NCBI GenBank assembly: GCA_964255285.1
Contig: CAXUUL010000073.1
Span: 1-37,423, forward strand
From: Ionaspis alba
Taxonomy: Eukaryota
Reading direction: 5' to 3'
Length of the DNA stretch: 37,423 nucleotides
The translations under genes were made by a program, and so were the position numbers. Under the pieces are notes generated by a model, which saw only the letters and a list, made by a program, of their open reading frames with translations, was not told the origin of the DNA and ran no database searches. Shown here piece by piece: positions 22,315 through 37,423 of this stretch (position 1 is the first letter of the stretch; the number at the start of each line of letters is the position of its first letter).

Positions 22315-25300
22315 ATGGACCCATTTTCCATTGTGGTTGGCAGTGCTTCGCTGGCACAGTTGAGTGTACAGCTTGGCCAGTACCTCAAAAACATCTATGA
22401 TACCGCTGTCTCATTCGAAGAGGACCTAGGATCTTTGCTATCTGAAGTCCAAGATCTCGAGTCGGTCAACAAATCGATTGAACATTTCCATAAAAGCGAA
22501 GTTCGTGGATATGCTGCTGAGCAGTCGAGCCTTCCACATGAGGAACAAGAGATCTGGCGTAACACCATCAACACTTTGCAAAGTTGCTCAAAAACGGTGA
22601 AGAGGTTGCAAAATGTACTGCAGGATATAATAGGGAAGAAAGGGCTCAAAGTGACAGGGTGGCGGGATGGAGTCAAAAAGGCATTGAGAAAGCAGGCAAA
22701 AGATGGCGCAATTAGTGAGATCCGGCTCCAGCTTTCATCTCATCGGGCAAGCCTCAACGTGTACCTAACCCTGTTCAGCCTGTAAGACTCATTCTCCGTC
22801 GGTATGTTCTCTCCTGATGCGGAACAGGAGTTGCGCACAGAATGGCTCTAGAGAGGCTCAAAATCTCGGGTTTCAACTGCATAGGCAACTCACTTATCTA
22901 GCATCAAGACTCCCCTCTGATGATGCAGACAATGTGGGTTGAGATCATTCAATTGAAGTCGCACAAAGCTGACGGATGCAGCTGCATCAGTCTTTCCGTT
23001 CTGCGACTACCATTGCATCAGCACTTCACCTGAACAAACATTTTGACACACCAAAAGCTGTCTCCAGTATCTTCACAGGCAGGGAGATGTATCTGACCGG
23101 ACTCAAACGAGCGTATGACGCCTCACATGTATTATCCGAAGACACATCCATTCGCAAACGGTTCGTCGTATTCGGTATTGGTGGCTCTGGCAAGACCCAA
23201 TTCTGTTGCAAGTTTGCTTTAGAAAATAAACAACGGTAATGTCTACATGCTCTACAGACATCGACCTTTTTAACCTTGTTCAGCTTCTGGGGCGTGTTCA
23301 CTGTCGATGCTAGCTCACCCGGAAATGCTCAGCAAAGCTTCATTGCGATCGCCAAAGCTTGTGGGACTGAACCGAACGAGCGCGCAGCAAGAAGCTGGCT
23401 ATCAAGCAGTGATCGTCCTTGGTTGCTCCTTATTGACAACGCCGATGACACTAACCTCGAGGTTGAAAAGTATCTACCCGATGGTGAACACGGCTTGACA
23501 CTCATTACCACTCGAAACCCTTCGGTGAAGATGCACGGCACAATTGGCGAAGGTTACTATCATTTTGACCGACTAGAAGATGACGAAGCGAATGAGCTAC
23601 TTCTGAGAGCAGCTGACAACCATGAACCTCGGACGCCCACCATATTACGATTAGCATCCGCGATCACCAGAAAACTTGGGGCCTTGCCTTTGGCGCTCGT
23701 ACACGCAGGCAAGGCAATCAAGGCAAGACTTTGTGACTTGGCGAATTACAACTCCTACTATGAACGCAGTTGGCAGATGATTCGCCAAAGCCAACACGTA
23801 CCAGGGCAAGATGAGGATGATTCCGACTACATGAAGGTCTACGCAAGCTACGAAATTGTATTTCGAGGCCTGGAAGCCGTAAGATTACGAAGATACAGAG
23901 ACGCAGTGCAACTTCTCAAGCTTTTCTCGTTTCTACACTATGAACACATTCCATTCGAATTCCTGGTAGCAGCTGTGAAGCACCCAAGGCTGCAGCGAGA
24001 AGCTGATGCTGCGTCGGAACAAACAATTCAATTGGCAGTTTCTCAACCCTCAACGTGGCATACTAGGGCATGGCCAAAACACTTCAGAACCGTGATCGAT
24101 CTAGTCAAAAGGAAACAGTTCTTCAATCAAAATCCATTTATCTTACCAACGTTCCTCCGAGACGCAGAACTGTCCAATAACTCTGACGATTTCAATGTTC
24201 GACTACGCGAAGCTCTGCTTGTCCTCACCGAATTGTCATTGATCACTTATTACGAGAATTCCGATAGCTATTCAATGCACCCTTTGGTCCACACATGGGT
24301 GCGCGAGAGACCACAAATGACTGTCCGTGCCCAAGCAGTTTGGTGTGAAGCGGCGCTGCATACACTCTCGCATTGCATACTGCTTCCGCCTCTGAGCGAG
24401 ACAGTCGACTCTCATGCAAGCTTAGCGCGCAAGCTACTCCCTCACATCATCTCTGTGGGCAAGCTTCAGCAGAAAATTGAAGAAGAGTTTGTGAGCAACA
24501 GGAAGCAACGCAGCAGACCTTGGCCGCCTCTGCAAACACAAATGTGTCCTTGGAGAGCAATTTTCTTGGCTAAATCCGCCGTTGTGTATTCCGAATGTGG
24601 TTTTTTTGGGGAAGCTGAAGCCTCTCTCCGAGTTGTGTTGGATTTCAATATCAAATACTTGGGCCCGAACCATCCCAGAACAGAAAGAGTGGCTCTTGTA
24701 GTATCCGACTGCTTATGGCAGCAAGGCCGTGTCAAAGATGCAGCGGACCTCCAGGAACTATATCTCCAGCGCAATTTGAATCATTTGGGCCCAAATGATC
24801 CTCGAACACTACGGCTTATGGACAAACTCGGTGAAAGTCGCCGGAGCCAAGGTCGGTTCGCTGAGTCAATGGAACTCCTGACGCAAGCCGTGCATGGGAT
24901 GAAATGCCAGCTTCCAACCTCGGATCCAGCTATTTATCATGCTCTGGAACAGCTCGGTATTACCTTGAGGTCTTGCTTCCGCCTCGAGGATGCTTGTTCG
25001 TACCTAGAACAAGCGAAAGCTGGTATGGAAAGATATCTAGGTGAGAATGACATGAGGACGCTTGTCACCACAGAGGAACTGGCAATCACATACAAAGACC
25101 TTGCAGTCACGCTTTTAACATCGAATCTCCGACTTGCGACACAATATTTGGAGACTGCGTATGCGCATGCAACCCTCGTTCTTAAACAACGCAGAGAACA
25201 AATCGGCGATCGGCAGCCACACACTTGGATCGCCCAAGGAACCGTCGGCCGCATCAAAGCTGCCATGGGCGACGTTACCACTGCCGAGCAGATATTCAGC

Positions 25301-25843
25301 AATATCTTACCCGTCGCTGTCCGCCACCTTGGTGATAAACATCTGGGTGTTTTAAACCATAAAACTCATTACGCTCGAATATTAATGCAGCAGGACCGCT
25401 ATCAAGAAGCAGAGGCCCTGCTTATCGATGTCTCCAAGCCTGCCAACTACAAGATCACCTCGTTGATTGGTGACCATCCGGACAGATGGGACGCTTTATG
25501 GGCTCTAATAGATTGCTTTCAGAAACAGGGAAAGACCAATAGTGGGCTTGCGACTTGTAATGAGCTGATCAGCGCGATGAACCTGATTAGAGATGGGAAA
25601 GAACAGACGGAGACGAGTAGTGCGTTTTGGAAAATGGCGCTCAACAAAAGAAGAGAATTGATGGCTATTGAATATCCGGATCTCGCGGAAGACGCAATGA
25701 TTGTGGCACCTGAAGCTTCAACCAACGCCCTAGGACCCATTGAGTTGGACTTTGGTGTTCACACAGCAGGCACTGCTGTTCAGGTTGTTGTAAAAACAGG
25801 TGCTGAGAAGCTCCGGCTGCGCGAGAGTATGAAGACTTGGTAA
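22315..25843 (+). CDS. Fungal NLR (STAND) protein: HeLo-like N-terminal domain + NB-ARC-type NTPase + TPR repeats, ~1128 aa. Exons 22315-22781, 22828-22933, 22982-23235, 23284-25843
   Basis: MDPFSIVVGSASLAQLSVQL N-terminus; FTGRE; Walker A GIGGSGKT; FWGVFTVDAS; Walker B WLLLIDNADD; LITTRN; LGALPLALVHAG; MHPLVHTWVRER; repeats of the LGPNHPRT/LGPNDPRT/LGENDMRT/IGDRQPHT/LGDKHLGV type. Confidence 0.9.
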
Positions 25844-27086
25844 TGAATCCATTTTACGAATTTGTAACACTTCTCTATTTCATCGCTGTCCGACAATGAC
25901 GCTTATCACACAGATGACCGAACCGGCTTACGGCTATGGACTAAAAAATATAAAATAGTTGTAGTATTCCAGGCTGATTTACTACTAGTCTATGCGAAAG
26001 TGTGTCATATTAAGCCACTAGTATGATCATGTGACCCCTATTGAGCCCTTGTTTTCTACATAGCCAGAGCCTTTTAGGCTCCAATTGGCTAAGATACTTT
26101 CTAGAGACTGCCCTGCACAGCTCCCTCACAAAATTGAGATCTTTGATTCAGGATCGATCGAGATATGTGCAGTTTCTATCGACATTTCTGTCCATCTGGT
26201 AACTCGTGAACATTAACCTGGTCGTTGAGAGCGACGGTAGTAATGTAACACTCAAGCTCGAATGAATTCTTCTACCATATCAATAGGAGAATAACGTTGT
26301 TCCTGATGGTTAAGAGAAGTTACTGCTTGAGCAGTATGGCCGCTCAACAGACAGGTACGATACATAAAAAAAGCTGTGATGCTGTACTCCGTGTTCTCAA
26401 AACGAGTCCCCATACGTTCCTTCAAAGAACTGGCCCTTTTATATCTATAGAGCGATCGATCGAGTTGAGATCGAACGACTCTACTTGTCGCCATATCCTG
26501 CGCCAAATACTTACCAATCCAATTCGAACCGCTCCCCGCCTTTCGTCGAGCGGACGGTGTGGTGTGTCCAAAAGCAAACGCTATCACAGAATCGAACTTC
26601 TGTGATTGAGGACTGTTCTAGGGGGAAGGCGTATGGGCAGAGCTCGTTGCGGAGCATAGTTAGCATAATTAGCGAGGTATTGATCCCCAGGGGCCTGCCG
26701 CCAACTGAGATAGGGGCTTTCATTAGAGGATCAGTCCTCAAAAAGGCCATGGAATTGTGCAAATAATGCTCTACAACCATTTCTATCCACGAGCCAGGGC
26801 GAGTCACCAAAACTTGGTTGGTTTTAGCGAGCTTGCCCACTAAACAGAGTCTATCTGTCCACACATTCTCAATCTAGCACACTTCTCTTAGCGTCCAACC
26901 TCGGCTGAGGAAGAACATCCGTAGGATAAGGCGTACTATCAAATTTCCTTTCTCGTCTATTGATTTGTTTTCTGGGACGGCATCGCACTTGCTCAACAAT
27001 CTCGAGGTTTCAATCAAGAAATCAAATGTTTGGATGATGGACCTTGGCGTTCGAAATCAAATTCTCCGGCCTGCATCTCAGAGGAA

Positions 27087-28694
27087 ATGTTTGCACGCCG
27101 TGTAGCGTGCCGCATGCCCCGTCATTTGCTGCCTCGACAATCTCAAAGATGGTCTCTACAGCGGAGGACGATGTCCTCTGCTACATCCGAAGCCAGTGTG
27201 CCTCCAACGGTAGATGCTTCTGTGCTTGGTGGTATCACTGCAGAGCTGGATCGCCTGTCGCCCCGGATTGATATTCGAGCAAACCAGATCAAGATCCTAG
27301 GAAGTCCAACTGAATTCTACGAAACGCTCAAGAACAAGATCAAAACGGCTAAGAAGAGAATCTATCTGTCGTCACTGTATATTGGTAAATCAGAGCATGA
27401 GCTGGTTTCATGCCTCAGAGAAGCCCTCCAGAAAAACCGAGATCTCTCCGTGTCTATTCTAACGGATGCCCTCCGTGGTACACGTGAGACTCCCAAAGCT
27501 TCATGCGCGTCGTTACTCGCTCCCCTTGCGCGTGACTTCCCCACGCAAGTGGAGATTCGAATGTACCATACTCCTAATCTGACGGGTATTCGGAAAAGGA
27601 TCGTCCCTAAACGGATCAATGAAGGTTGGGGCCTCCAACATATGAAGCTGTACGGCATAGATGACGAGGTCGTTCTCTCTGGTGCCAATCTTTCGGACGA
27701 TTATTTTAACAACCGTCAAGATCGCTATCATGTCTTTTCATCAAAACGTGTTACTGATTACTACGCAAAGATACACGGTACCATGTGCAGCGTTAGCTTT
27801 CGTCTTCGGCCTTTGCAAGATTCGTCTTGTTATACTCTTGATTGGCCTGACAATAATGCGACGACTTCGCCACTTGTTGATCCCAAAGAGTACATCAGAG
27901 CAAGCACAGAGCTCTTCAGACCACTAATCGCTCCAGAACGCTCGACAGGCCAAGGATCAGTTCCCTCAGAGACTGCCATCTATCCAATGTTGACATTGCC
28001 TCATTCGTTGAACAATGAGCTTTCTGCTCTTCAAGCACTTCTGTCGGCTCCACTACCTCGTGGATCATCATATCTTTTTACAGCTGGTTATTTCAACCCG
28101 CATCCATCCATCACCGCTTCTTTGTTGTCCTGCTCTGCTAAATCAAAGATGCCTGCAGAGGTGGTCGGAACGGTCTTGACAGCTAGTCCATGGGCCAACG
28201 GGTTTTACGGATCCAAGGGTGTATCTGGCATGCTTCCGGCCGCGTACACCCTGTTGTCCAGACGATTTCTGCAGCAAGTCGACAAAATAGCGCCGGGAGC
28301 AGTAGAGTTGCGCGAATGGCGGCGAGGCACTGTTGGCACTCCGGGTGGATGGACGTATCACGCTAAAGGGCTATGGTTGACGCTCCCTAGGCAGGATTCG
28401 GTTACTGTTGAGGACAACTCCACGATTCCTACTCTGAAGTCAGCTGGTCCTTCTGTGACTGTTATTGGCTCGTCAAATTACACGACACGAAGCTATTCGC
28501 TGGATACAGAGGTTGGAGCAGTCATAGTGACACGTGATCAAGGTCTTCAGGCTCAATTGAAAAGAGAAGCGGAAGGACTCTTACACTATTCAAAACATAT
28601 AAGGGAGGAAGACCTTAGAGGTAGCGAGCGAAGAGTTGGACTGGGTGTAAGAGTTGCCATGTGGATTGTTAGAGCTGCCGGAGGGTCACTCTAG
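27087..28694 (+). CDS. PGS1: CDP-diacylglycerol--glycerol-3-phosphate 3-phosphatidyltransferase (phosphatidylglycerophosphate synthase, PLD family); intronless
   Basis: Arg-rich mitochondrial presequence; PTEFYETLK; RIYLSSLYIG; TDALRGTR; PKRINEGWGLQHMKLYGIDD..SGANLS.DYF.NRQDRY; FTAGYFN; GWTYHAKGLW; IGSSNYT.RSYSLD.E. Confidence 0.95.
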   Translation: MFARRVACRMPRHLLPRQSQRWSLQRRTMSSATSEASVPPTVDASVLGGITAELDRLSPRIDIRANQIKILGSPTEFYETLKNKIKTAKKRIYLSSLYIGKSEHELVSCLREALQKNRDLSVSILTDALRGTRETPKASCASLLAPLARDFPTQVEIRMYHTPNLTGIRKRIVPKRINEGWGLQHMKLYGIDDEVVLSGANLSDDYFNNRQDRYHVFSSKRVTDYYAKIHGTMCSVSFRLRPLQDSSCYTLDWPDNNATTSPLVDPKEYIRASTELFRPLIAPERSTGQGSVPSETAIYPMLTLPHSLNNELSALQALLSAPLPRGSSYLFTAGYFNPHPSITASLLSCSAKSKMPAEVVGTVLTASPWANGFYGSKGVSGMLPAAYTLLSRRFLQQVDKIAPGAVELREWRRGTVGTPGGWTYHAKGLWLTLPRQDSVTVEDNSTIPTLKSAGPSVTVIGSSNYTTRSYSLDTEVGAVIVTRDQGLQAQLKREAEGLLHYSKHIREEDLRGSERRVGLGVRVAMWIVRAAGGSL

Positions 28695-29076: not shown

Positions 29077-29897
29077 CTACCAGCTGCGGCCATCCTCAGA
29101 ATCCTCGGAATCCTCGGATATCCCAAGAGCCTCCTTCAACTCTTCCTTCCATTGACGAACAGGCTTCCTTCCCTGTCTAAGTTCTTTGTAGGACGTCTTG
29201 AGGGGCTCCGGAAGCTGGTTTGCATCCAAAAGCCCATCATCATCAACGTACTCCTCCATATACGCGATCATTGACATGGCACAGGCACCTATGCGCTTCC
29301 CTGAATCGCGCGCGTACAGACGCAGAAAGGCTTCCAGCAAGATATGAGACTTGGGGACGACAACTAGGTCACGGTCAGATTTGAAGACACCCAATCCCCG
29401 ACCCGGCCGCCAGGGTGGGAGAACAGTCTGGTCGGACGCGAAAATAAATTGCGACGGATATTCGAGTTTCTTTGGGGACGAGAAAGAGCTGTCGAGCGGT
29501 GGTAAGAACCAAAGAGTCTCAGATTGTATGTAGAGGGCCACAGTGACTTCTGAGTCCTTGATGTGGATGTGAAATGCTGGCGGCGGCGTGTGCCGCTCTG
29601 GTGAACTTGAGGAGCAGGTTCCGGGGTCGGGACATGGCGTGAGGCTCTTGAACTGAGTGAGAGCCTTTGTGCCAACTCTCAAACGGTCGTCCGGAACGAC
29701 AAAGTCGATCGACTCGCAGAGCATTAGCTTAGGATCTGGAATTTTCTTGATCGAGAGATACCTACGCCGATGATAGATGGTACGCCGTGGACATTAAGAA
29801 GGTAGTGGCCCCAGAGGACACAAGGGACCTGATTCGAGTTGAGAGCCCTAGCAATGGATGCCACAAAGGATTCTGAAAGATCCGACATATCCTTCAT
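29077..29897 (-). CDS. Hypothetical protein (~252-255 aa) with a degenerate Pol-beta-type nucleotidyltransferase-like N-terminus. Exons 29897(or 29888)-29766, 29712-29077
   Basis: MSDLSESFVASIARALNSNQVPCVLWGHYLLNVHGVPSIIG|SIDFVVPDD...VVVPKSHILLEAFLRLYARD. GTAGGT donor, CTAAT branch; the first AG downstream is a GAG acceptor. The gene model is well supported, the fold is inference. Confidence 0.7.
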
Positions 29898-31016
29898 TTG
29901 TTTCTTCGAAGTGTTAATAGCACGGGCTTTTGCTGAGCTGTCTGTGGTGGCCGAACGTGTAGAGAATGAAAGTTGAGGCGACTACAATAAAATGTGGTGT
30001 CTGGTTCAACTTTCCGTTCTCACGCGCTAGGGTCTTGGCAGGTAAGATAAACAAAGATGCATCCGAATAAACAAAGACTCTCCCGCAAGATTTGCTCCGC
30101 TCTCAAACATACCTCATGATCTAGGCACAACAACCGGAATATTTCTAGTATTTGACCACTAAAACTTTTAGACACACTGCCCATAAGATCATAGGATTCT
30201 ATTGCCATATTATTGAAAATCAAGCCTGACACCGCAGTGAAGTAAAACAAATCCTTTTATTTTAAATACGACGGCCAGCATAAGCACATCAGTCTTGCTG
30301 TCTTTAACATCCTCTTGAAATCTCCCTGTCGAAGCGCGCGTCTCGACATCCAATGTTGTACCAATTTTCATGCTTTGCCTCCAGATCTGCGACTCCAAAT
30401 TTGGGGGAAAGCGCTCTCCGTGAGATCAGTCTAGGCCGTGGTTCGCAATTACGACCTCAACACGAGTCGCCTACCCCTTGTTAAGGTTCATATTGACCCA
30501 GCGCCATATGTAGCAGGCGTGTCCTTAGGGAGGCCCGGCGGCTACTGGAACAATCCTACATTGAGCCCATCCGTGAACTTTTCAGTGGTCTACCGTGACG
30601 ATTGTCCCGAACAGCTGCGGTGCAGGTGAATTGTCAAAGTTCAAACATGTCGTTCTACTGTGGTACTAGTTTGGTAGGGTCGCCACGGACATGCCAGCGT
30701 TTAATGACGATGTGTCCGGCTCTTCGCACTATCATCATTCAACACATAGAAACGGAAGCGACGACCAACGGGCCCCTTCGCCAAAGTCTAAGTCTAGAGA
30801 CGGTTGCCTACTACAGACCATTCCTGATTGAGCAGGGCCTGAGTTAGGACACAAAAAGCTGGACGTCCTACCTGACTACTTCAGCGATTCACCTCCAGAT
30901 CATATTTGCTGTCTCCAGACTCTGTTGACCGCTTGTTGTGTCACGAAGGCTCTGTCGTAGCATACCCTTCCTTTTCACGCCTATCATATCTGTCCTGTTC
31001 TCGACCTTCCAGCACC

Positions 31017-31768
31017 ATGCCTACTCGACTTCAGCTTGAAACCGCCGCCGCCGAGGTAATCCGAATCCTCAAGAGCATCAGCGAATACTCTGATGCCATG
31101 ATTGCTATCATTGGCGGGCTGGCTCTCTGGAAATACCACCCGACCGGCAGAACTACCGAGGTATTCAATTCTCATATCCTCAGTGGCCGCACACAAACTC
31201 ACATGGTTTCTAGGATGTTGATTTCATTGTCAACATCAGCAATGCACCACAGAGTGTCAAAGAAAGGCTCTTGGCTCTGCCCGACTCCCCATTCGTTCAG
31301 CACGCCCAATTCTTTTACTACAAGACCCCCAGCGGATCCCTTATTCAAGTTGACATCACTGGGGAGTACCAGGTACGTACATCTCTTCTGGAGATACTGA
31401 TGATTCTTGACGAGTAGGGGTGAAGGGAGCGTTCCTGCATGCTGACATGCGCTACTTAGTCCCCGTACATGCCCGCCGCTGCAGTGAAGCTGAGAGACCT
31501 CCCGGCAGACGCCATCCCATACATCTCGCCGACCGATCTTGTCGTTTTCAAGATGAACTCCTGCGGTTTGCGGGCGCTACCATCCAAGAGACGTACGGAT
31601 GCCGCTGATGCTCAGGCTCTACTAGAGGGGCTCACCGTGCACGGCTCGCTCAGCCTCACAGATGCTCAGCGAGCTATTGTGGAGCCCTGCATCAATGATG
31701 TAGTTGTACATGGCACGAGGACCGAAACGTGGTGGAGGGAGCGTCTGGGTCTGCCCGCTAGCCGGTGA
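31017..31768 (+). CDS. Small (203 aa) nucleotidyltransferase with AbiEii/DUF1814/MenT-like motif order. Exons 31017-31160, 31214-31372, 31460-31768
   Basis: Two phase-0 GT-AG introns give IAIIGGLALWKYHPTGRTTE|DVDFIV ... IQVDIT ... YISPTDLVVFKMNSCGLR..SKRRTDAADAQALL. The motif order is hGG, RxTxDhD, third Asp, conserved Lys, DxxD. Confidence 0.8.
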
Positions 31769-31908
31769 TTGCAATCATGGACCGTTTTGTTGGAGATGGT
31801 TCTAGACTCTCCTGTTGCTCGTGGCTCCTTTTGTTTCATGATTGAAACTTGTACCACGAGTGTAAAGAATGGCGCCACGTAGCATAGCAATGTATTAAAG
31901 GGGGGGAT

Positions 31909-31974
31909 ATTGTTAGAGCCACGGTGGTGCTTGCCCACTGTTTGCATTCAAGTCCCTGGTCTTGCATTTCATGA
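31909..31974 (+). repeat. Diverged direct repeat, copy 1 (copy 2 at 33865-33930)
   Basis: Manual ungapped alignment gives 53/66 identical positions, and 12 of the 13 differences are transitions. Confidence 0.8.
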
Positions 31975-32271
31975 TTAACGTCCCAAATTTACATGAAAAA
32001 AAATAACCCGTACGGTAACTGTTACCAGGAGATATAAATATTGCAAAAACTTTGAAGATAATAATCGATTAAACGACGCTAAAATATATATGAATTTAAT
32101 AATCACGTGCCTGCTCCTCAATCTCAGCTTTTTTATTAGGTTAGCGGTTAGATTAGCCGTTACTAAATGAGGTTAAGCACTTTTATTTTTATATGTAAAA
32201 ATCAACGTTTACTGAGAGTACGGTTCGATTAGAACTGGTGAAATACGGTATTGAGATGGCTGTCTAATAGC

Positions 32272-32299
32272 AACCATGTTGCCCGCGGGCAACATGGTT
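32272..32299. repeat. Perfect 28-bp palindrome
   Basis: AACCATGTTGCCCG|CGGGCAACATGGTT is its own reverse complement. Confidence 0.95.
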
Positions 32300-32332
32300 A
32301 CTGTCTCGCCTAATAAGGTTTAGCTCCAGGGG

Positions 32333-32353
32333 TCGTGATATGTTATATCACGA
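32333..32353. repeat. Hairpin, 9-bp stem with 3-nt loop
   Basis: TCGTGATAT-GTT-ATATCACGA. Confidence 0.85.
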
Positions 32354-32370
32354 ATCCTCCGTAGTTCTAG

Positions 32371-33277
32371 TTGATCAACCCTTCAACCGTCACTGGCACG
32401 ATAGGTTCCGCCAACGATACCATCGGTAGTTGTCTAGATCGTACATATACTCTAACAAAAACAACAGATCAAACTGTGCTTGCACAGTCAATTTCTCAGC
32501 CTGACGACCGCGAAGATGCCTACCTATCCATATCGGCGACGGTTCGTCAAGAGGAGATGTTTTCCAACCCGGATCATGAGACGAATGTTGCCACAGGGGG
32601 AACACAGCGACAACTCTGTACCACGCCAAATGAGGAGACTGATTTATCCGCGTCATCGCCAGTAGCACCGCTTCTTCCATCAGGGTCGTCGACAAGACTA
32701 AGTGCCTAGGGAATTATCAACGATACTACACGGCAGACAAACCCTGGAGTATCAGCAAGGCAGAAAAGGGCAAGAGCTCCAGGACCAGATCATTTTCGTC
32801 CGCAAGGAAAACGATAAGATCTCTAAGGTCCAGAGCGGTCTCGGAACTCGTCAGATGCAGAAGAGGCTGGTCCACAGGATTCTGTGTCGCAGCCTCAAGA
32901 AGTCACCAAAGGCAAGGCCGCCCTCCGAATCATCTTCTACATCATCAAAGAAAAAACATCGCGTGGAATCCAAAAGCAATGGCATGACGGAAAAGTTACA
33001 GGAGCAACAATCGACATGTACATCAAAGGCATCTTCGAAATAACAGGCAATGATGATGTCGAGGGTATGACCTGCACCCTTTTGACTTCCGAGGATGAAT
33101 TCGATTGGTCACTGTCAACCGATGACAACGGAGGTTTTGAGAAAGGTCGTGGCCGCATGGAAGAAGAATAGAAATGGGGGACACCCATTTGAGCTTCGAA
33201 TAGATCCTGTCTTCCGTAACGTCTTGGTGTCAGAGGAAACTGTCCAGGTGGAGGAAATCGACTTGTCTTATCTCTGA
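32371..33277 (+). pseudogene. Probable pseudogene of a hypothetical protein
   Basis: One frame runs from 32371 to 33171, interrupted by TAG 32707, TAA 32815 and TAA 32824. It includes a globular-looking block (LRIIFYIIKE..KQWHDGKVTG..FDWSL). A protein-like tail (KVVAAWKK..PFELRIDP..EEIDLSYL*) continues in another frame to 33277. Confidence 0.5.
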
Positions 33278-33864
33278 TCGGCTCGTCGGGTAGAACTTGA
33301 CTAGCTGAGGGCGTTCAACAAGGTCATCAGCTAAATATTATACTGGGAGGGAAGGGTTAGATTGCTAGTCAACCATGGAGTGTTTTGTATCTCCGAATCC
33401 TTCAGGGTGCTTCAAAAGATCAAGATGTGAAGACAGGTGCATCACACCAAGCGCTCAGACTTGGCTAGGTCTCAAGCAGTCCCTTGAGTAGCTGTAGATT
33501 CGAAGTCCAACGTAAGGTAATTGGAAAATAGGGGGTTTTCCAAGGATGAGTGTGCCGGTAATGCTTGATATAAGGATCGGGGCAGCACTGGACATCGCAC
33601 GTAAAAGTCTAGTTCTAGTGCCCTCGAGATTTCGGATATGGCATGCAGGAGGCTTTACAGAATTGTGGGCTTGATATGTTGGAGGGCTACTACTGAATAT
33701 ATGGTCAGCATATAGCTTATTATGCGGGGGAACTTGTAAGACGATATACCGAAAACCTATAGTAGATTTGCTCCGGTACAGCTGATGCGGCATATAGCTA
33801 CTGTGACAAACCGTAGGCAGTATACACTTTGCGAAACATATCAAATGTACATAGATAGGGAGAC

Positions 33865-34120: not shown

Positions 34121-34921
34121 TCATACCTCAACAGTCTTCTCCCCGTCAAAACCTTCAGCCTGGGCAAAGTAATATCCCCTCTGGTTTGCAAGCAGCCTCA
34201 ACGGTCCAGCACCACCCTCCCGATCAACCGTAAAATCGCAGTTGTAATGTGTATGCCCAAATGCCCAAACTTTGACTTTGTCGCTCTTGAAACATCCCTC
34301 ACTGGACAACTCCGTTGAGAAAGCGCTCGAGATGGGACTCCCAGCATGCTTCGGCTCGATCGAACGTACATCCAGCGATGGGCTCCAATGCGAAAAGATC
34401 ATGATCTTGACGTCAGACTGTTCTAGGTCTGCGACCTGCTCATTGAGCCAGGCAAGATCCCTCTTATGCGCCTCGTTGTGCATGCCGACATCCCAGTCAC
34501 TGGTCTGAAAAAAGTCGTTGAGCCCGAAGCTGACGGCCTCTTGACTTTCGGGCGGGATGAAAGAAAAGAGGCTGCAGCCCAGGATGGCAACGTTTGTGCC
34601 AGGCAGCCGGAATGCTGCACGGTCGAGCAGGACGAACTCTCCCAGCGACTTGTTCTTACGGACGTCCTGTCCGAAGGCACGAAGGATATCGAGAGTGTCA
34701 GACCAGTTGGAATGATACGCCTCATGATTGCCAGGGACGAAGAGCACAGCGCGGAACTGCTTGAGCTGTAGTGTCAGGAAGGCAAGGCAGTCGTCCTTAT
34801 GCGATGCAATGTTGCCCACGTCACCAAGTAGCGCTAGGTAGGGTGCCTTTGGGACGATCTCGAAGACATCGTAGGCTTTTGGTGCTTCCAAATGTAGATC
34901 GGAGAGAACCTGGACCGCCAT
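34121..34921 (-). CDS. Calcineurin-like metallophosphoesterase (266 aa, intronless)
   Basis: All five metallophosphoesterase motifs are present: SDLHLE, LLGDVG, PGNHEAY, FSHWSP, FGHTH. ATG at 34921. Confidence 0.92.
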   Translation of the reverse strand: MAVQVLSDLHLEAPKAYDVFEIVPKAPYLALLGDVGNIASHKDDCLAFLTLQLKQFRAVLFVPGNHEAYHSNWSDTLDILRAFGQDVRKNKSLGEFVLLDRAAFRLPGTNVAILGCSLFSFIPPESQEAVSFGLNDFFQTSDWDVGMHNEAHKRDLAWLNEQVADLEQSDVKIMIFSHWSPSLDVRSIEPKHAGSPISSAFSTELSSEGCFKSDKVKVWAFGHTHYNCDFTVDREGGAGPLRLLANQRGYYFAQAEGFDGEKTVEV

Positions 34922-35468: not shown

Positions 35469-37270
35469 CTATGCCGCCACAAAGGCACCGGGATCAAATT
35501 CAGTCTCGCCCAGCTCACTGGTATGTCTCGTCCTCTCGGTCCTCCCATCCTGACCTCGGGCAGCACCTTTGGCATCATTGTCTCCTGTTCCGCTCGGGGC
35601 CCCGAAAGCAGTGGTCCAACGGGCCAGGAGCATATCAGTTGGATCAATTGGAATCCCGCTCGGCGTGTCCATCGCCATACGACGTGGTTCGTAAGCACCA
35701 AGATCGATGGGTCGAGCGGTCTGGGCGTGGCTTGAATTGCTATAGTATTCCATCTGTCCAATTAGATGAGAGTCAGGAAGCTCATCATAGTCCTCCCGAG
35801 AGAGCATGTTGTCATCAGATAAATCAGATGCGGGAAAATATGTGACTTCGTGCGGAAATCTTGAAGCAGTTTGTCGCGCTGGTGGCTCAGGCTTGGCTGA
35901 AGTCTGCCCCTTTGTCGGGGTAGACCTAAGACTCATTCTTTCTTTGTGAGGCCGTGCAACGAGCGAGCGTTTGAGCAGGAACAGCAGCAAAGTCCTAGCA
36001 TGTCTCTCGTCATCGGCTATTGCCGGTGGCAGCGAGTCGCCTTGGTATCCAGGGCGTAAGGCCATGATTTTGAAATCCGCTCCGTCTTCTCTCATACGAT
36101 CTCGAATTGAGCTGACGAGTTCTCTCTCGTCGACGGTCAATGTTGAAACGGCCTCCTCAAGAGAATGAGGGGGAGCCGATATGTGCATGATTTCTTGCTC
36201 TATGAGTTGAGGGCTCAAGTGTAATGGGAATACACGGGGGACTGCGAGGAGGTATGCTTCAAGAGGAAGAATGTGTTGTTTGGGTTGGTCCTTTGGCTTT
36301 TGACTAGTGATTCTCTTCCACCAGAGTTTCTTTGGAGCTTCTGTAGGTGGTCTCAAATTTGTCAGTTCCATAATTGGATTTCTATGGAAGATGTTAGAGC
36401 TGGCCAGGGTGCTGCATCACGATTGGTGATGTATACCTCGAGACTGGTAAATGATAGGCTTTGGCAGCTCCCGATTTGTTTCCACCGACCAAATCTCGTG
36501 AATTTGAGGATGAATCCTCAATGGTTCGAGAGGTTAAAAACTTTGGAGACGACCGACCTGGTTTAGACTCCCCATAGGCTAACTCATCTTCTGATGATGA
36601 CAGCTGAGGCTTTCTAGGGGACAATGTTCTCTTAGTTGCCAGCACCCGGACAACTTTCCTGATCTCGCGTTCTGGCAGAGATGTTGTGGGAGAGTCCCTA
36701 GAGGAGTGACTTGGTCAGCTTGGATCAATTATGGAATCTATGTCCATGAAGCAGCATTGTAGAGGGGAGGCTCTACCGTCTCCGGAGATAGGCTAGGTTT
36801 GCAACTTGAAGCAATAGAAATAAAGTTGTCTTGCGAGACTCAAGATTGAGTTGGAATCTCCTAATCTTCTGAGAGAGCAGTGGCCATTTGATATGGTCTA
36901 AATTGGATAAAGCCAAGATCTCTGCTCTGTCATCCCGGGAAGGTCCATTGACAGGCTTCCCGGCCTTATTCAAGGTCCTTACGATCTGGAGAAAAACTTT
37001 ATAGCACTGCTCGCGTTCATTTTCGATATCTCGCACTCCTCGCGGGCTCAAGATGGCATTGCTTGGATCAGCTTTGTCCTGGTCAACGATCTGTTGGAGC
37101 TGTTCCAGAGCCGAGGCCACAGAATTGACTTCGCTCGATATTTGGCGTACTCGCTCGTCGGCATTAGCAACTGTCTCCACATACGTAGCTAGACTCAAGC
37201 CGAGTTTGATGCCAAAGTCTATGACGGCAACTGCAGATCCAGCGACTCCAAGCGCAGAGGCCGGATCCAT
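35469..37270 (-). CDS. Protein with HeLo-like (fungal STAND N-terminal-type) domain and no NTPase, ~555 aa. Exons 37270-36777, ~36697-36437, 36381-35469
   Basis: MDPASALGVAGSAVAVIDFGIKLGLSLATYVETVANADERVRQISSEVNSVASALEQL...IKWPLLSQKI..LESRKTTLFLLLQV. Two GT-AG introns with CTGAC/CTAAC branches join three ORF-track fragments in frame. No Walker A/B motif. Confidence 0.75.
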
Positions 37271-37423
37271 CCCCGTGATCAGCTCCAAGGGAGTCCGTGT
37301 CGATTAAACGATACATTCGCAGCATTGGAATCATGGACCATGTTGACATGTATCATGACGGGTCAAGGCGCGCGCGGTCTTCTTTGTATGGTCTTGTCAA
37401 CGAGGCTGAGTCTCGAGGTTACG

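Follow-up and report, generated by a model that had tools for sequence, protein, structure and literature searches.

Introduction

Bacterial enzymes of the DUF1814 type act, according to published abstracts, on the 3' ends of transfer RNA (tRNA), and the toxins among them are described in the available accounts as stopping translation by altering tRNA ends and as being tamed by partner proteins. The closest described systems are AbiE of Streptococcus agalactiae and lactococci, and MenAT of Mycobacterium tuberculosis with the toxins MenT1, MenT3/TglT, and MenT4. Here we describe a divergent pair of small genes at 29077..31768 of a 37,423-nucleotide stretch of Ionaspis alba DNA (contig CAXUUL010000073.1 of assembly GCA_964255285.1, positions 1 to 37,423, forward strand), which is called the window below. 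The minus-strand gene of the pair is termed gene A, and the plus-strand gene is termed gene B. The window DNA is fungal and belongs to Pezizomycotina, as judged from the short introns in its genes and from relatives that are all ascomycete proteins. We tentatively regard the two genes as an AbiE-like pair of enzyme and regulator.

The four motifs of DUF1814 proteins were defined by Dy et al. (2014), and the AbiEii residues named in that study are G49/G50, R63, D67, D69, K173, R180, and D192. In a 2026 preprint, T65 is given as the auto-phosphorylation site of AbiEii. AbiEi's C-terminal domain is described there as covering the active-site face of the toxin in the AbiEi:AbiEii heterodimer and as inducing T65 auto-phosphorylation.

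Fungal DUF1814 copies have so far been known from annotation and one crystal structure only. Published passages call the function of these proteins unclear, and mention expansions in Colletotrichum and in skin fungi. Pb27, an antigen of Paracoccidioides brasiliensis (5UVD), is described in such passages as a fungal DUF1814-superfamily protein of unknown function, and they report no partner gene for it. Dy et al. (2014) state that fungal DUF1814 homologues are not genetically linked to putative antitoxins. In full-text searches of the papers covered, we found no description of a partner gene for fungal DUF1814 proteins, nor of the family to which gene A belongs. A first-pass annotation of the window, made from its letters alone, had remarked that no fungal system like this one was described; within that literature the remark holds, although fungal DUF1814 proteins are known.

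Gene B belongs to the DUF1814/AbiEii/MenT family

The spliced product of gene B has 203 amino acids, and is 81% identical end to end with P0121 of Psora testacea and 77% identical with P0123 of Rhinocladiella mackenziei. The AbiEii family of Pfam (PF08843) was matched by 26 of 32 members of the gene B family at E≤0.01. With the cut-off at 22.5 bits, the R. mackenziei orthologue P0123 passed at 26.0, four further close orthologues fell just short of it (17.8–22.2), and P0122 gave no match. These threshold results belong to the orthologues, the window's own gene B protein having been scanned as single exons only. The AbiEii models of PADLOC matched up to 17 of the 32 family members, with a best E value of 3.5e-6.

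In the alignment of the 32 members, conservation was complete or at least 90% at G33, G34, R45, T47, D49, D51, K132, R139, D148, and D151, and the window protein carries all of these residues. Motif I, hG[G/S], is represented by the invariant I32 and G33 together with G34 (≥90%), and motif II, DhD, by R45, D49, and D51 (each ≥90%). The spacer from G34 to D49 is 14 residues long, compared with 15 reported for DUF1814, and the spacing of R-x-T-x-D-x-D equals that of R63/T65/D67/D69 in AbiEii. For motif III, K132 and R139 are invariant and seven residues apart, corresponding to K173/R180 of AbiEii. Motif IV is represented by the conserved D148 and D151, and the distance of 19 residues between K132 and D151 is the same as that between K173 and D192. 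There is one small departure in motif IV, where a Thr, not Lys/Arg, stands directly before D148.

Structures were modelled with AlphaFold2 for orthologues (P0013 for gene A and P0123 for gene B), not for the spliced proteins of the window. The model of P0123 reached a predicted local distance difference test score (pLDDT) of 95.5. Its best structural match was Pb27 (5uvd; Z 15.2, root-mean-square deviation (rmsd) 4.2, 191 residues aligned), which also gave a weak full-length sequence match (E 0.15). The identity between Pb27 and gene B is only about 15%, and Pb27 therefore belongs to a different subfamily. MenT toxins were among the best matches after Pb27, with Z 13.3 for MenT1 and Z 10.9 for MenT3/TglT. 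Gene B also resembles the MenT toxins in that a Ser/Thr is conserved two positions ahead of the DxD, where MenT proteins auto-phosphorylate by the residue numbers given in PDB titles. It shares about 15–19% identity with them, and MenA antitoxins are structurally diverse and unlike gene A, with the exception of Rv2827c (1zel_B; Z 4.5 against the gene A model).

On the basis of motifs at the published spacings, matches to hidden Markov models (HMMs), and fold, we conclude that gene B is a member of the DUF1814/AbiEii/MenT-type nucleotidyltransferase family and that, to judge from its sequence and model, it very probably encodes an active enzyme. This agrees with the role of active enzyme first proposed for the plus-strand gene, which keeps all catalytic motifs. 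By analogy with the bacterial enzymes, its target may be the 3' end of an RNA, for instance the acceptor end of tRNA, to which it would transfer nucleotides. The ratio of nonsynonymous to synonymous substitution rates (dN/dS) of gene B relative to the window was 0.23–0.33.

Gene A belongs to a large constrained family with a predicted nucleotidyltransferase-like fold

The spliced product of gene A has 252 amino acids and no internal stops. It is 85% identical, without gaps over 242 amino acids, to the annotated R. mackenziei protein P0013. A word-indexed search retrieved at least 171 relatives, and an exhaustive profile search retrieved 459 representative clusters at E≤0.001, 205 of these at E≤1e-10. 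Chaetothyriales, Onygenales, Eurotiales, Sordariomycetes, Dothideomycetes, Leotiomycetes, lichen fungi, and one orbiliomycete were represented among the matches listed. The dN/dS of gene A relative to the window was 0.14–0.24, and that of a neighbouring metallophosphoesterase gene was 0.08–0.15. Both gene A and gene B are thus under purifying selection. The first-pass annotation had called the minus-strand gene the degenerate one of the pair. The low dN/dS and the size of the conserved family show instead that gene A is not decaying; we rejected the degenerate-copy view, since gene A is intact and constrained, with invariant residues of its own.

Profile searches with gene A found no sequence match in Pfam, NCBIfam, PADLOC, or PDB. 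A protein-language-model search of the Atlas returned only its own family and a sub-threshold lead to PF10706 (score 0.89). Some records of the family carry the label 'thioredoxin reductase', which traces to Metarhizium entries; no thioredoxin-reductase domain was found, and the label was discarded.

The model of the gene A orthologue P0013 had a pLDDT of 72.3 and a predicted template modelling score (pTM) of 0.69, and was poor after about residue 170. The first matches of this model in Foldseek were ANT(2'')-Ia, CdnE, JHP933, TM1012, and MenT1. Comparison by VIA-align gave Z 10.2 for TM1012, 10.2 for LnuA, 9.2 for MenT1, 8.8 for ANT(2'')-Ia, and 8.7 for Pb27. When the model was compared with 48,161 chains without Foldseek, the same five proteins were the sole matches at Z≥8. 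Across these comparisons, Z was 9.7–10.2 for TM1012 and 9.5–10.2 for LnuA, and MenT1 also scored 9.1. The best of them, TM1012, LnuA, and ANT(2'')-Ia, aligned over 142–161 residues. They are active or annotated as active, whereas the DxD-aligned positions of gene A are variable, and gene A has no sequence similarity to them. The predicted fold of gene A is therefore of the Pol-beta nucleotidyltransferase-like type, as is that of gene B, in keeping with the fold first suggested for both.

Inspection of 32 diverse family members, down to 24% identity, revealed what has become of the catalytic residues. Conserved DxD metal-binding acids after hG[G/S] were not found in gene A. The window protein has S42-x-D44 at the equivalent positions, and the family shows S/G/A/D/C/E/T at position 42 and D/E/A/S/C/T/R/Q, or no residue, at position 44. 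The remnant of motif I consists of W26 (≥90%) and mostly G27. By contrast, L25, G35, C68, H89, H91, and P140 are invariant, and conservation reaches at least 90% at W26, C74, S105, L108, A133, and G149. H89 and H91 share one strand (model residues 88–92), two residues apart and about 45–47 residues after S42/D44, an offset that resembles the spacing from D49/D51 to D95 in gene B. Our reading of the alignment is that gene A appears to have lost the Mg-binding acids and to have gained a Cys2His2 site (C68, C74, H89, H91), which is probably a zinc site. The proposal that gene A is a pseudo-enzyme was thus sound in so far as the catalytic acids are not conserved across the family, but it does not apply in the sense of a degenerate copy, given the large constrained family.

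Possible resemblance of gene A to the antitoxicity domain of AbiEi in predicted fold

We compared the pair with AbiE. Gene B has the four DUF1814 motifs of AbiEii, with their spacings and HMM matches, and its partner appears to be non-catalytic with a predicted fold that may match the antitoxicity domain of AbiEi. The gene A model aligned with AbiEi (6y8q_A) at Z 6.7 and rmsd 3.6 over 126 residues, covering chain residues 57–195, which form the C-terminal domain; this Z lies under the trust level of the tool. The nearest folds of that C-terminal domain after Rv2827c are 5KQJ, 4FO1, and 5UVD, as stated by Beck et al. (2020), and these three are also neighbours of the gene A model. The differences from AbiE are that AbiE is a bicistronic operon, whereas the genes described here are divergent, bear introns, and belong to a eukaryotic host. 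Furthermore, gene A has a Cys2His2 signature and, unlike AbiEi, no winged helix-turn-helix (wHTH) DNA-binding domain.

Gene structure

The positions of the features are collected in Table 1. The two divergent genes lie where they had been proposed. Gene A has ATG codons at 29897 and 29888, and the orthologues P0013, P0020, P0026, and P0034 start at the equivalent of 29888, which supports the second. All splice junctions of genes A and B recur in independently annotated orthologues, including the junction of gene B intron 1 in P0121–P0126, and each junction drawn in the first-pass annotation was among them. We also scanned metagenomes with a gene A profile, which yielded 39 loci in 17 lineages at 95% identity (numbered with the prefix L below). 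Gene B intron 1 is conserved in L006 and L032 by locus comparison. The gene A intron is at the identical codon boundary in 17 of 19 related loci, the rows of L027 and L033 being uninformative. This intron ends in AAG in 15 loci and in CAG in 2. The GAG acceptor of the window is therefore a local variant of a conserved site.

In both genes, a phase-0 intron stands immediately before a comparable strand, S-I-D-F-V in gene A and D-V-D-F-I in gene B, as had been seen by eye. The five single-exon translations of genes A and B matched no Pfam family. Because full-length gene B orthologues do match AbiEii, we conclude that the introns hide the nucleotidyltransferase domain, and this accounts for its invisibility in the open reading frame (ORF) track, which had also been pointed out.

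Table 1. Positions of the gene pair, its exons and introns, and related features (window coordinates unless a locus is named)
Feature	Position	Strand	Basis
Gene A, predicted catalytically dead nucleotidyltransferase-fold protein, 252 amino acids	29077..29897	-	splice model and orthologue alignment
Gene A exon 1, 41 codons from 29888	29888..29766	-	orthologue starts
Gene A intron, 53 nt, phase 0, GTAGGT...CTAAT...GAG	29765..29713	-	junction in annotated orthologues
Gene A exon 2, 211 codons	29712..29080; stop 29079-29077	-	spliced translation
Spacer, 1.1 kb between start codons; possible shared (bidirectional) promoter	29898..31016	.	head-to-head layout
Gene B exon 1 (start ATG 31017): helix 1, G-G motif (motif I), R45/T47	31017..31160	+	orthologue alignment
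Gene B intron 1 (53 nt; GT...TAG; phase 0), immediately preceding the D-V-D strand	31161..31213	+	orthologue junction
Gene B exon 2: DxD (D49, D51), conserved Asp D95	31214..31372	+	orthologue alignment
Gene B intron 2, 87 nt, GT...TAG	31373..31459	+	conserved in L006, L032, L036
Gene B exon 3 (31460-31765): motif III K132...R139, motif IV D148, D151; stop 31766-31768	31460..31768	+	
Metallophosphoesterase gene, 266 amino acids, no intron seen	34121..34921	-	Pfam PF00149, E 2.9e-11
Metallophosphoesterase gene in relatives	L006 2680-3546; L036 4341-5159; L012 7020-7853; L019 2023-2847		
Pseudogene A and B pairs	L036 5319-6780; L035 351-1764		

Genes A and B are neighbours in several classes of fungi

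Whether homologues of the two genes adjoin elsewhere was examined in assemblies where A and B share a locus-tag prefix or lie on contigs of equal size, using word-filtered protein lists. At least nine such cases were found; locus tags give no orientation. Consecutive tags were present in R. mackenziei (08736/08737), Psora crenata (005891/005892), Trypethelium eluteriae (001871/001872), and Emydomyces testavorans (007241/007242), whereas the tags of Arachnomyces sp. differed by two (001070/001072). The contigs that carry the two genes were of equal size in Lineolata, Aspergillus taichungensis, and Apodospora peruviana. The pair thus occurs in Eurotiomycetes, Lecanoromycetes, and Dothideomycetes.

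Among the 39 metagenomic loci, gene B was present in four (L006, L032, L035, and L036), always upstream of gene A and divergent from it. The layout was head-to-head in 4 of the 4 cases where the DNA of both genes was seen (the window, L006, L032, and L036). Between the window and L006, the sequence of the spacer is conserved only to about 60 bp upstream of gene A. In a maximum-likelihood tree of 36 gene A family rows, hand-picked from the matches and non-exhaustive, B-linked A genes occurred in both major clades; the pairing is therefore either old or was re-created more than once. These results support the idea that the two families are neighbours in other fungal genomes, but the pairing is far from universal. 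The recurrent adjacency in distantly related fungi suggests that A and B work together.

The region upstream of gene A is variable within one lineage. Of the four members of the L006 lineage with sequence upstream of gene A, only one has gene B. From L006 position 5887 (114 bp upstream of the A ATG) onward, L027 matches L006 at 99.7% identity. Before this breakpoint, L027 carries a 5.9-kb block of 26–36% GC without an ORF of 120 amino acids. The near-identical contigs L007 and L039, like L027, differ completely from L006 upstream of gene A, where they carry about 6 kb of such sequence; L006 alone has gene B. The AT-rich block looks like a repeat degraded by repeat-induced point mutation (RIP), and similar blocks abut gene A in L003/L034, L007/L039, and L021. 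The difference between L006 and L027 reflects either presence/absence polymorphism or sequence inserted between A and B. By eye, the upstream neighbour of gene A is a cytochrome P450-like gene in L005 and a transposase-like remnant in L012.

Broken copies were frequent. In L035/L036, gene A has in-frame stops, frameshifts, and Phe at the conserved Cys74, while gene B has lost exon 1 and the DxD strand, and the spacer is shorter than 120 bp. The same premature stop in gene A was found in L009 and L033, on two contigs, with no gene B within 6 kb. Premature stops were also present in L013 and L026; stops seen on a single contig could be assembly errors. Because pseudogenes are frequent and intact A genes occur without an adjacent B, we conclude that the A–B pair behaves as an accessory, frequently lost unit, and that gene A is not strictly dependent on a neighbouring gene B.

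Common origin of A and B is possible but unproven

The two proteins had first been proposed to be distant paralogues on the basis of an N-terminal alignment made by eye. That alignment did not rise above chance. The best E value in blastp of A against B was 9.5, and hhalign gave probabilities at chance level, 0.18% for a profile of 23 A sequences and 0.34% for one built from 32 diverse A sequences; the narrower profile was also run in local, global, and greedy modes. A forced maximum-accuracy alignment was collinear over the full lengths and paired S-I-D-F-V with D-V-D-F-I, again at chance level (P 0.39). The two models have an identical order of helices and strands over the first 100 residues. 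Structurally, gene A is at least as close to TM1012/LnuA as to the relatives of gene B. One member of the gene A family, P0280 of Diaporthe amygdali (J7T55_013894), has a B-type tail motif at residues 202–219, which matched the B profile in hhalign with a probability of 68.6% (E 4.6e-5, 18 columns). This tail may come from a chimeric gene model, or it may be left over from a common ancestor. The fold, the order of elements, the shared phase-0 intron site, and the adjacency are compatible with a common origin of A and B, but profile comparison does not detect one, and we regard paralogy as possible but unproven.

Proposed mechanism and alternative explanations

We tentatively propose, with a confidence that falls a little short of even, that the locus encodes an AbiE-like enzyme/regulator pair, in which the gene A protein would bind the gene B protein and hold it inactive, possibly via T47, with both genes served by a shared divergent promoter. 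Inferred in this scheme are B's activity as an enzyme and its substrate, the binding of zinc and of B by A, any toxicity and rescue, and the sharing of the promoter. Gene B would be an active DUF1814 enzyme that adds nucleotides to an RNA 3' end, for example the tRNA acceptor end, and that could be switched off by phosphorylation of Thr47, by analogy with its bacterial relatives. Gene A would be a non-catalytic protein of nucleotidyltransferase fold, in which the metal-binding acids have been replaced and a Cys2His2 cluster, probably binding zinc, has been fixed. It may bind, restrain, or regulate B in the manner of AbiEi's C-terminal domain on AbiEii. The divergent layout and promoter would keep A and B co-expressed and their amounts coupled.

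Several observations weigh against this proposal. The gene A model starts at the first helix/strand of the nucleotidyltransferase-like core, without a wHTH domain; no HTH family was found by Pfam among the 32 A members, and none of the 32 matched an AbiEi model (Pfam E≤1, PADLOC E≤1). The Z score to AbiEi is below the trust level of the tool and also below the Z scores of gene A to true enzymes, and the evidence for its fold comes from an orthologue model of pLDDT 72.3 that is poor after residue 170. Of the 9 metagenomic lineages that extend at least 2 kb upstream of A, only 3 have gene B next to it, and in Blastomyces percursus A and B are found on separate contigs. In L002, the L003 group, the L010 group, and L019, gene A has no adjacent B and is nevertheless intact and constrained, and its dN/dS is 0.14–0.20 in L002, L005, L012, and L019, all without an adjacent B. 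Arachnomyces sp. PD_36 has three A paralogues (P0263, P0335, and P0340), one of them near gene B, which shows that the A family extends beyond the linked pair. Finally, the interaction of A with B and the activity of B are argued from analogy.

Many of the same observations bear on another account, in which A and B are mere neighbours that share a broad fold and have unrelated functions, retained in an ancestral and eroding gene order, perhaps with a common promoter. No B lies within 6 kb of A in 6 of the 9 lineages with enough flank, gene A stays intact and constrained where B is absent, and the A family, with 459 clusters and several paralogues per genome, is far wider than its linked subset. 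The metallophosphoesterase gene is retained as well, so that part of the linkage signal may be block synteny. Gene order is usually scrambled between Pezizomycotina classes, however, and the pair recurs in three classes and in both deep clades of A, always head-to-head where the layout was seen. Moreover, the L032 pair occurs without the metallophosphoesterase, and A and B have decayed jointly in L035/L036. On balance we consider mere neighbourhood rather unlikely. An account in which gene A is itself an enzyme, with a new Cys2His2 metal centre on a nucleotidyltransferase scaffold, strikes us as decidedly unlikely. It would place A not as an inhibitor but in a pathway with B and/or the metallophosphoesterase, acting for example on nucleotides or RNA ends. 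The conservation of C68, H89, and H91 (invariant) and of C74 (≥90%) down to 24% identity would suit such a centre, as would the position of H89/H91 on one strand at a B-like distance from S42/D44. In addition, the dN/dS of A is as low as that of B, and in four lineages without B the immediate neighbour of A is the metallophosphoesterase. Yet sequence searches matched no known enzyme family, and the metal site is deduced from conserved residues. Cys2His2 clusters are more often structural.

Least probable in our estimation, and indeed hardly to be expected, is that A and B are paralogues from an inverted tandem duplication that now form a selfish or allorecognition element, of the killer/antidote or het-like kind, which is the first-pass reading in its strong form. 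The shared fold class and structural neighbours, the same order of secondary structure, the phase-0 intron before the equivalent strand, the collinear forced alignment that sets S-I-D-F-V on D-V-D-F-I, and the B-type C-terminal tail of P0280 would all follow from such a duplication. Adjacent pairs stand on both sides of the deepest split in the tree of sampled A rows, and the L006/L027 difference upstream of A and the frequent pseudogenes would suit an element of this kind. Profile–profile comparison stays at chance level, though, and the structure of A is no further from TM1012 and LnuA than from the relatives of B; an AT-rich repeat block (27–32% GC) inserted or assembled next to A is a simpler account of the polymorphism, and nothing ties the locus to incompatibility or drive.

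Returning to the AbiE-like pair, a bolder form of it would be the first eukaryotic two-gene toxin–regulator module like AbiE/MenAT, in which a nucleotidyltransferase toxin of bacterial type would be restrained by a catalytically dead protein with its own fold, equivalent to the C-terminal domain of the antitoxin. Its partner would have arisen beside the toxin early in Pezizomycotina, followed by vertical inheritance, co-divergence, frequent breakage, and joint decay. We consider this form unlikely. A recurrent, co-diverging partner with the fold of an antitoxicity domain would offer a testable logic for how fungal DUF1814 proteins are regulated, and would assign a role to a large fungal family now mislabelled 'thioredoxin reductase'. 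If toxicity and rescue were true, the pair would be a rare example of toxin–antitoxin-like biology in eukaryotes.

Neighbouring genes in the window

The metallophosphoesterase gene lies tail-to-tail with gene B in the window, L006, and L036, and tail-to-tail with gene A in four lineages that lack B (the L010 group, L013, L019, and L029/L030). At the L032, L002, L005, and L009 loci the gene is missing. Sequence searches found no solved relative of its product, and NCBIfam gave a far sub-threshold match only. The gene may be a third member of the unit or may reflect block synteny; inversion of the A–B unit followed by loss of B would explain its position beside A.

Between gene B and the phosphoesterase gene, at about 31983–32178, lies a short AT-rich element that is multi-copy in the source sample. 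It has roughly three times the depth of its flanks, loose ends are numerous at 31983–32049, and one contig skips 32039–32177. The surrounding 2 kb or so (31769–33845) gave no blastn match in L006.

A long ORF at 23240–25843 (+) contains NB-ARC and TPR repeats as detected by Pfam. We take this to be the architecture of a fungal NOD-like receptor (NLR)-like protein, a type often tied to non-self recognition. At 36773–37303 (-), an ORF matches PF17111 (PigL_N, a family that appears as Helo_like_N in one paper). The NLR-like and PF17111 genes give the neighbourhood a flavour of cell death and recognition, with no tie to the A–B pair. The ORF at 26964–28694 (+) carries two phospholipase D (PLD)-type motifs (PF13091 and PF00614), and is presumably, as a guess, a housekeeping gene resembling phosphatidylglycerophosphate synthase.

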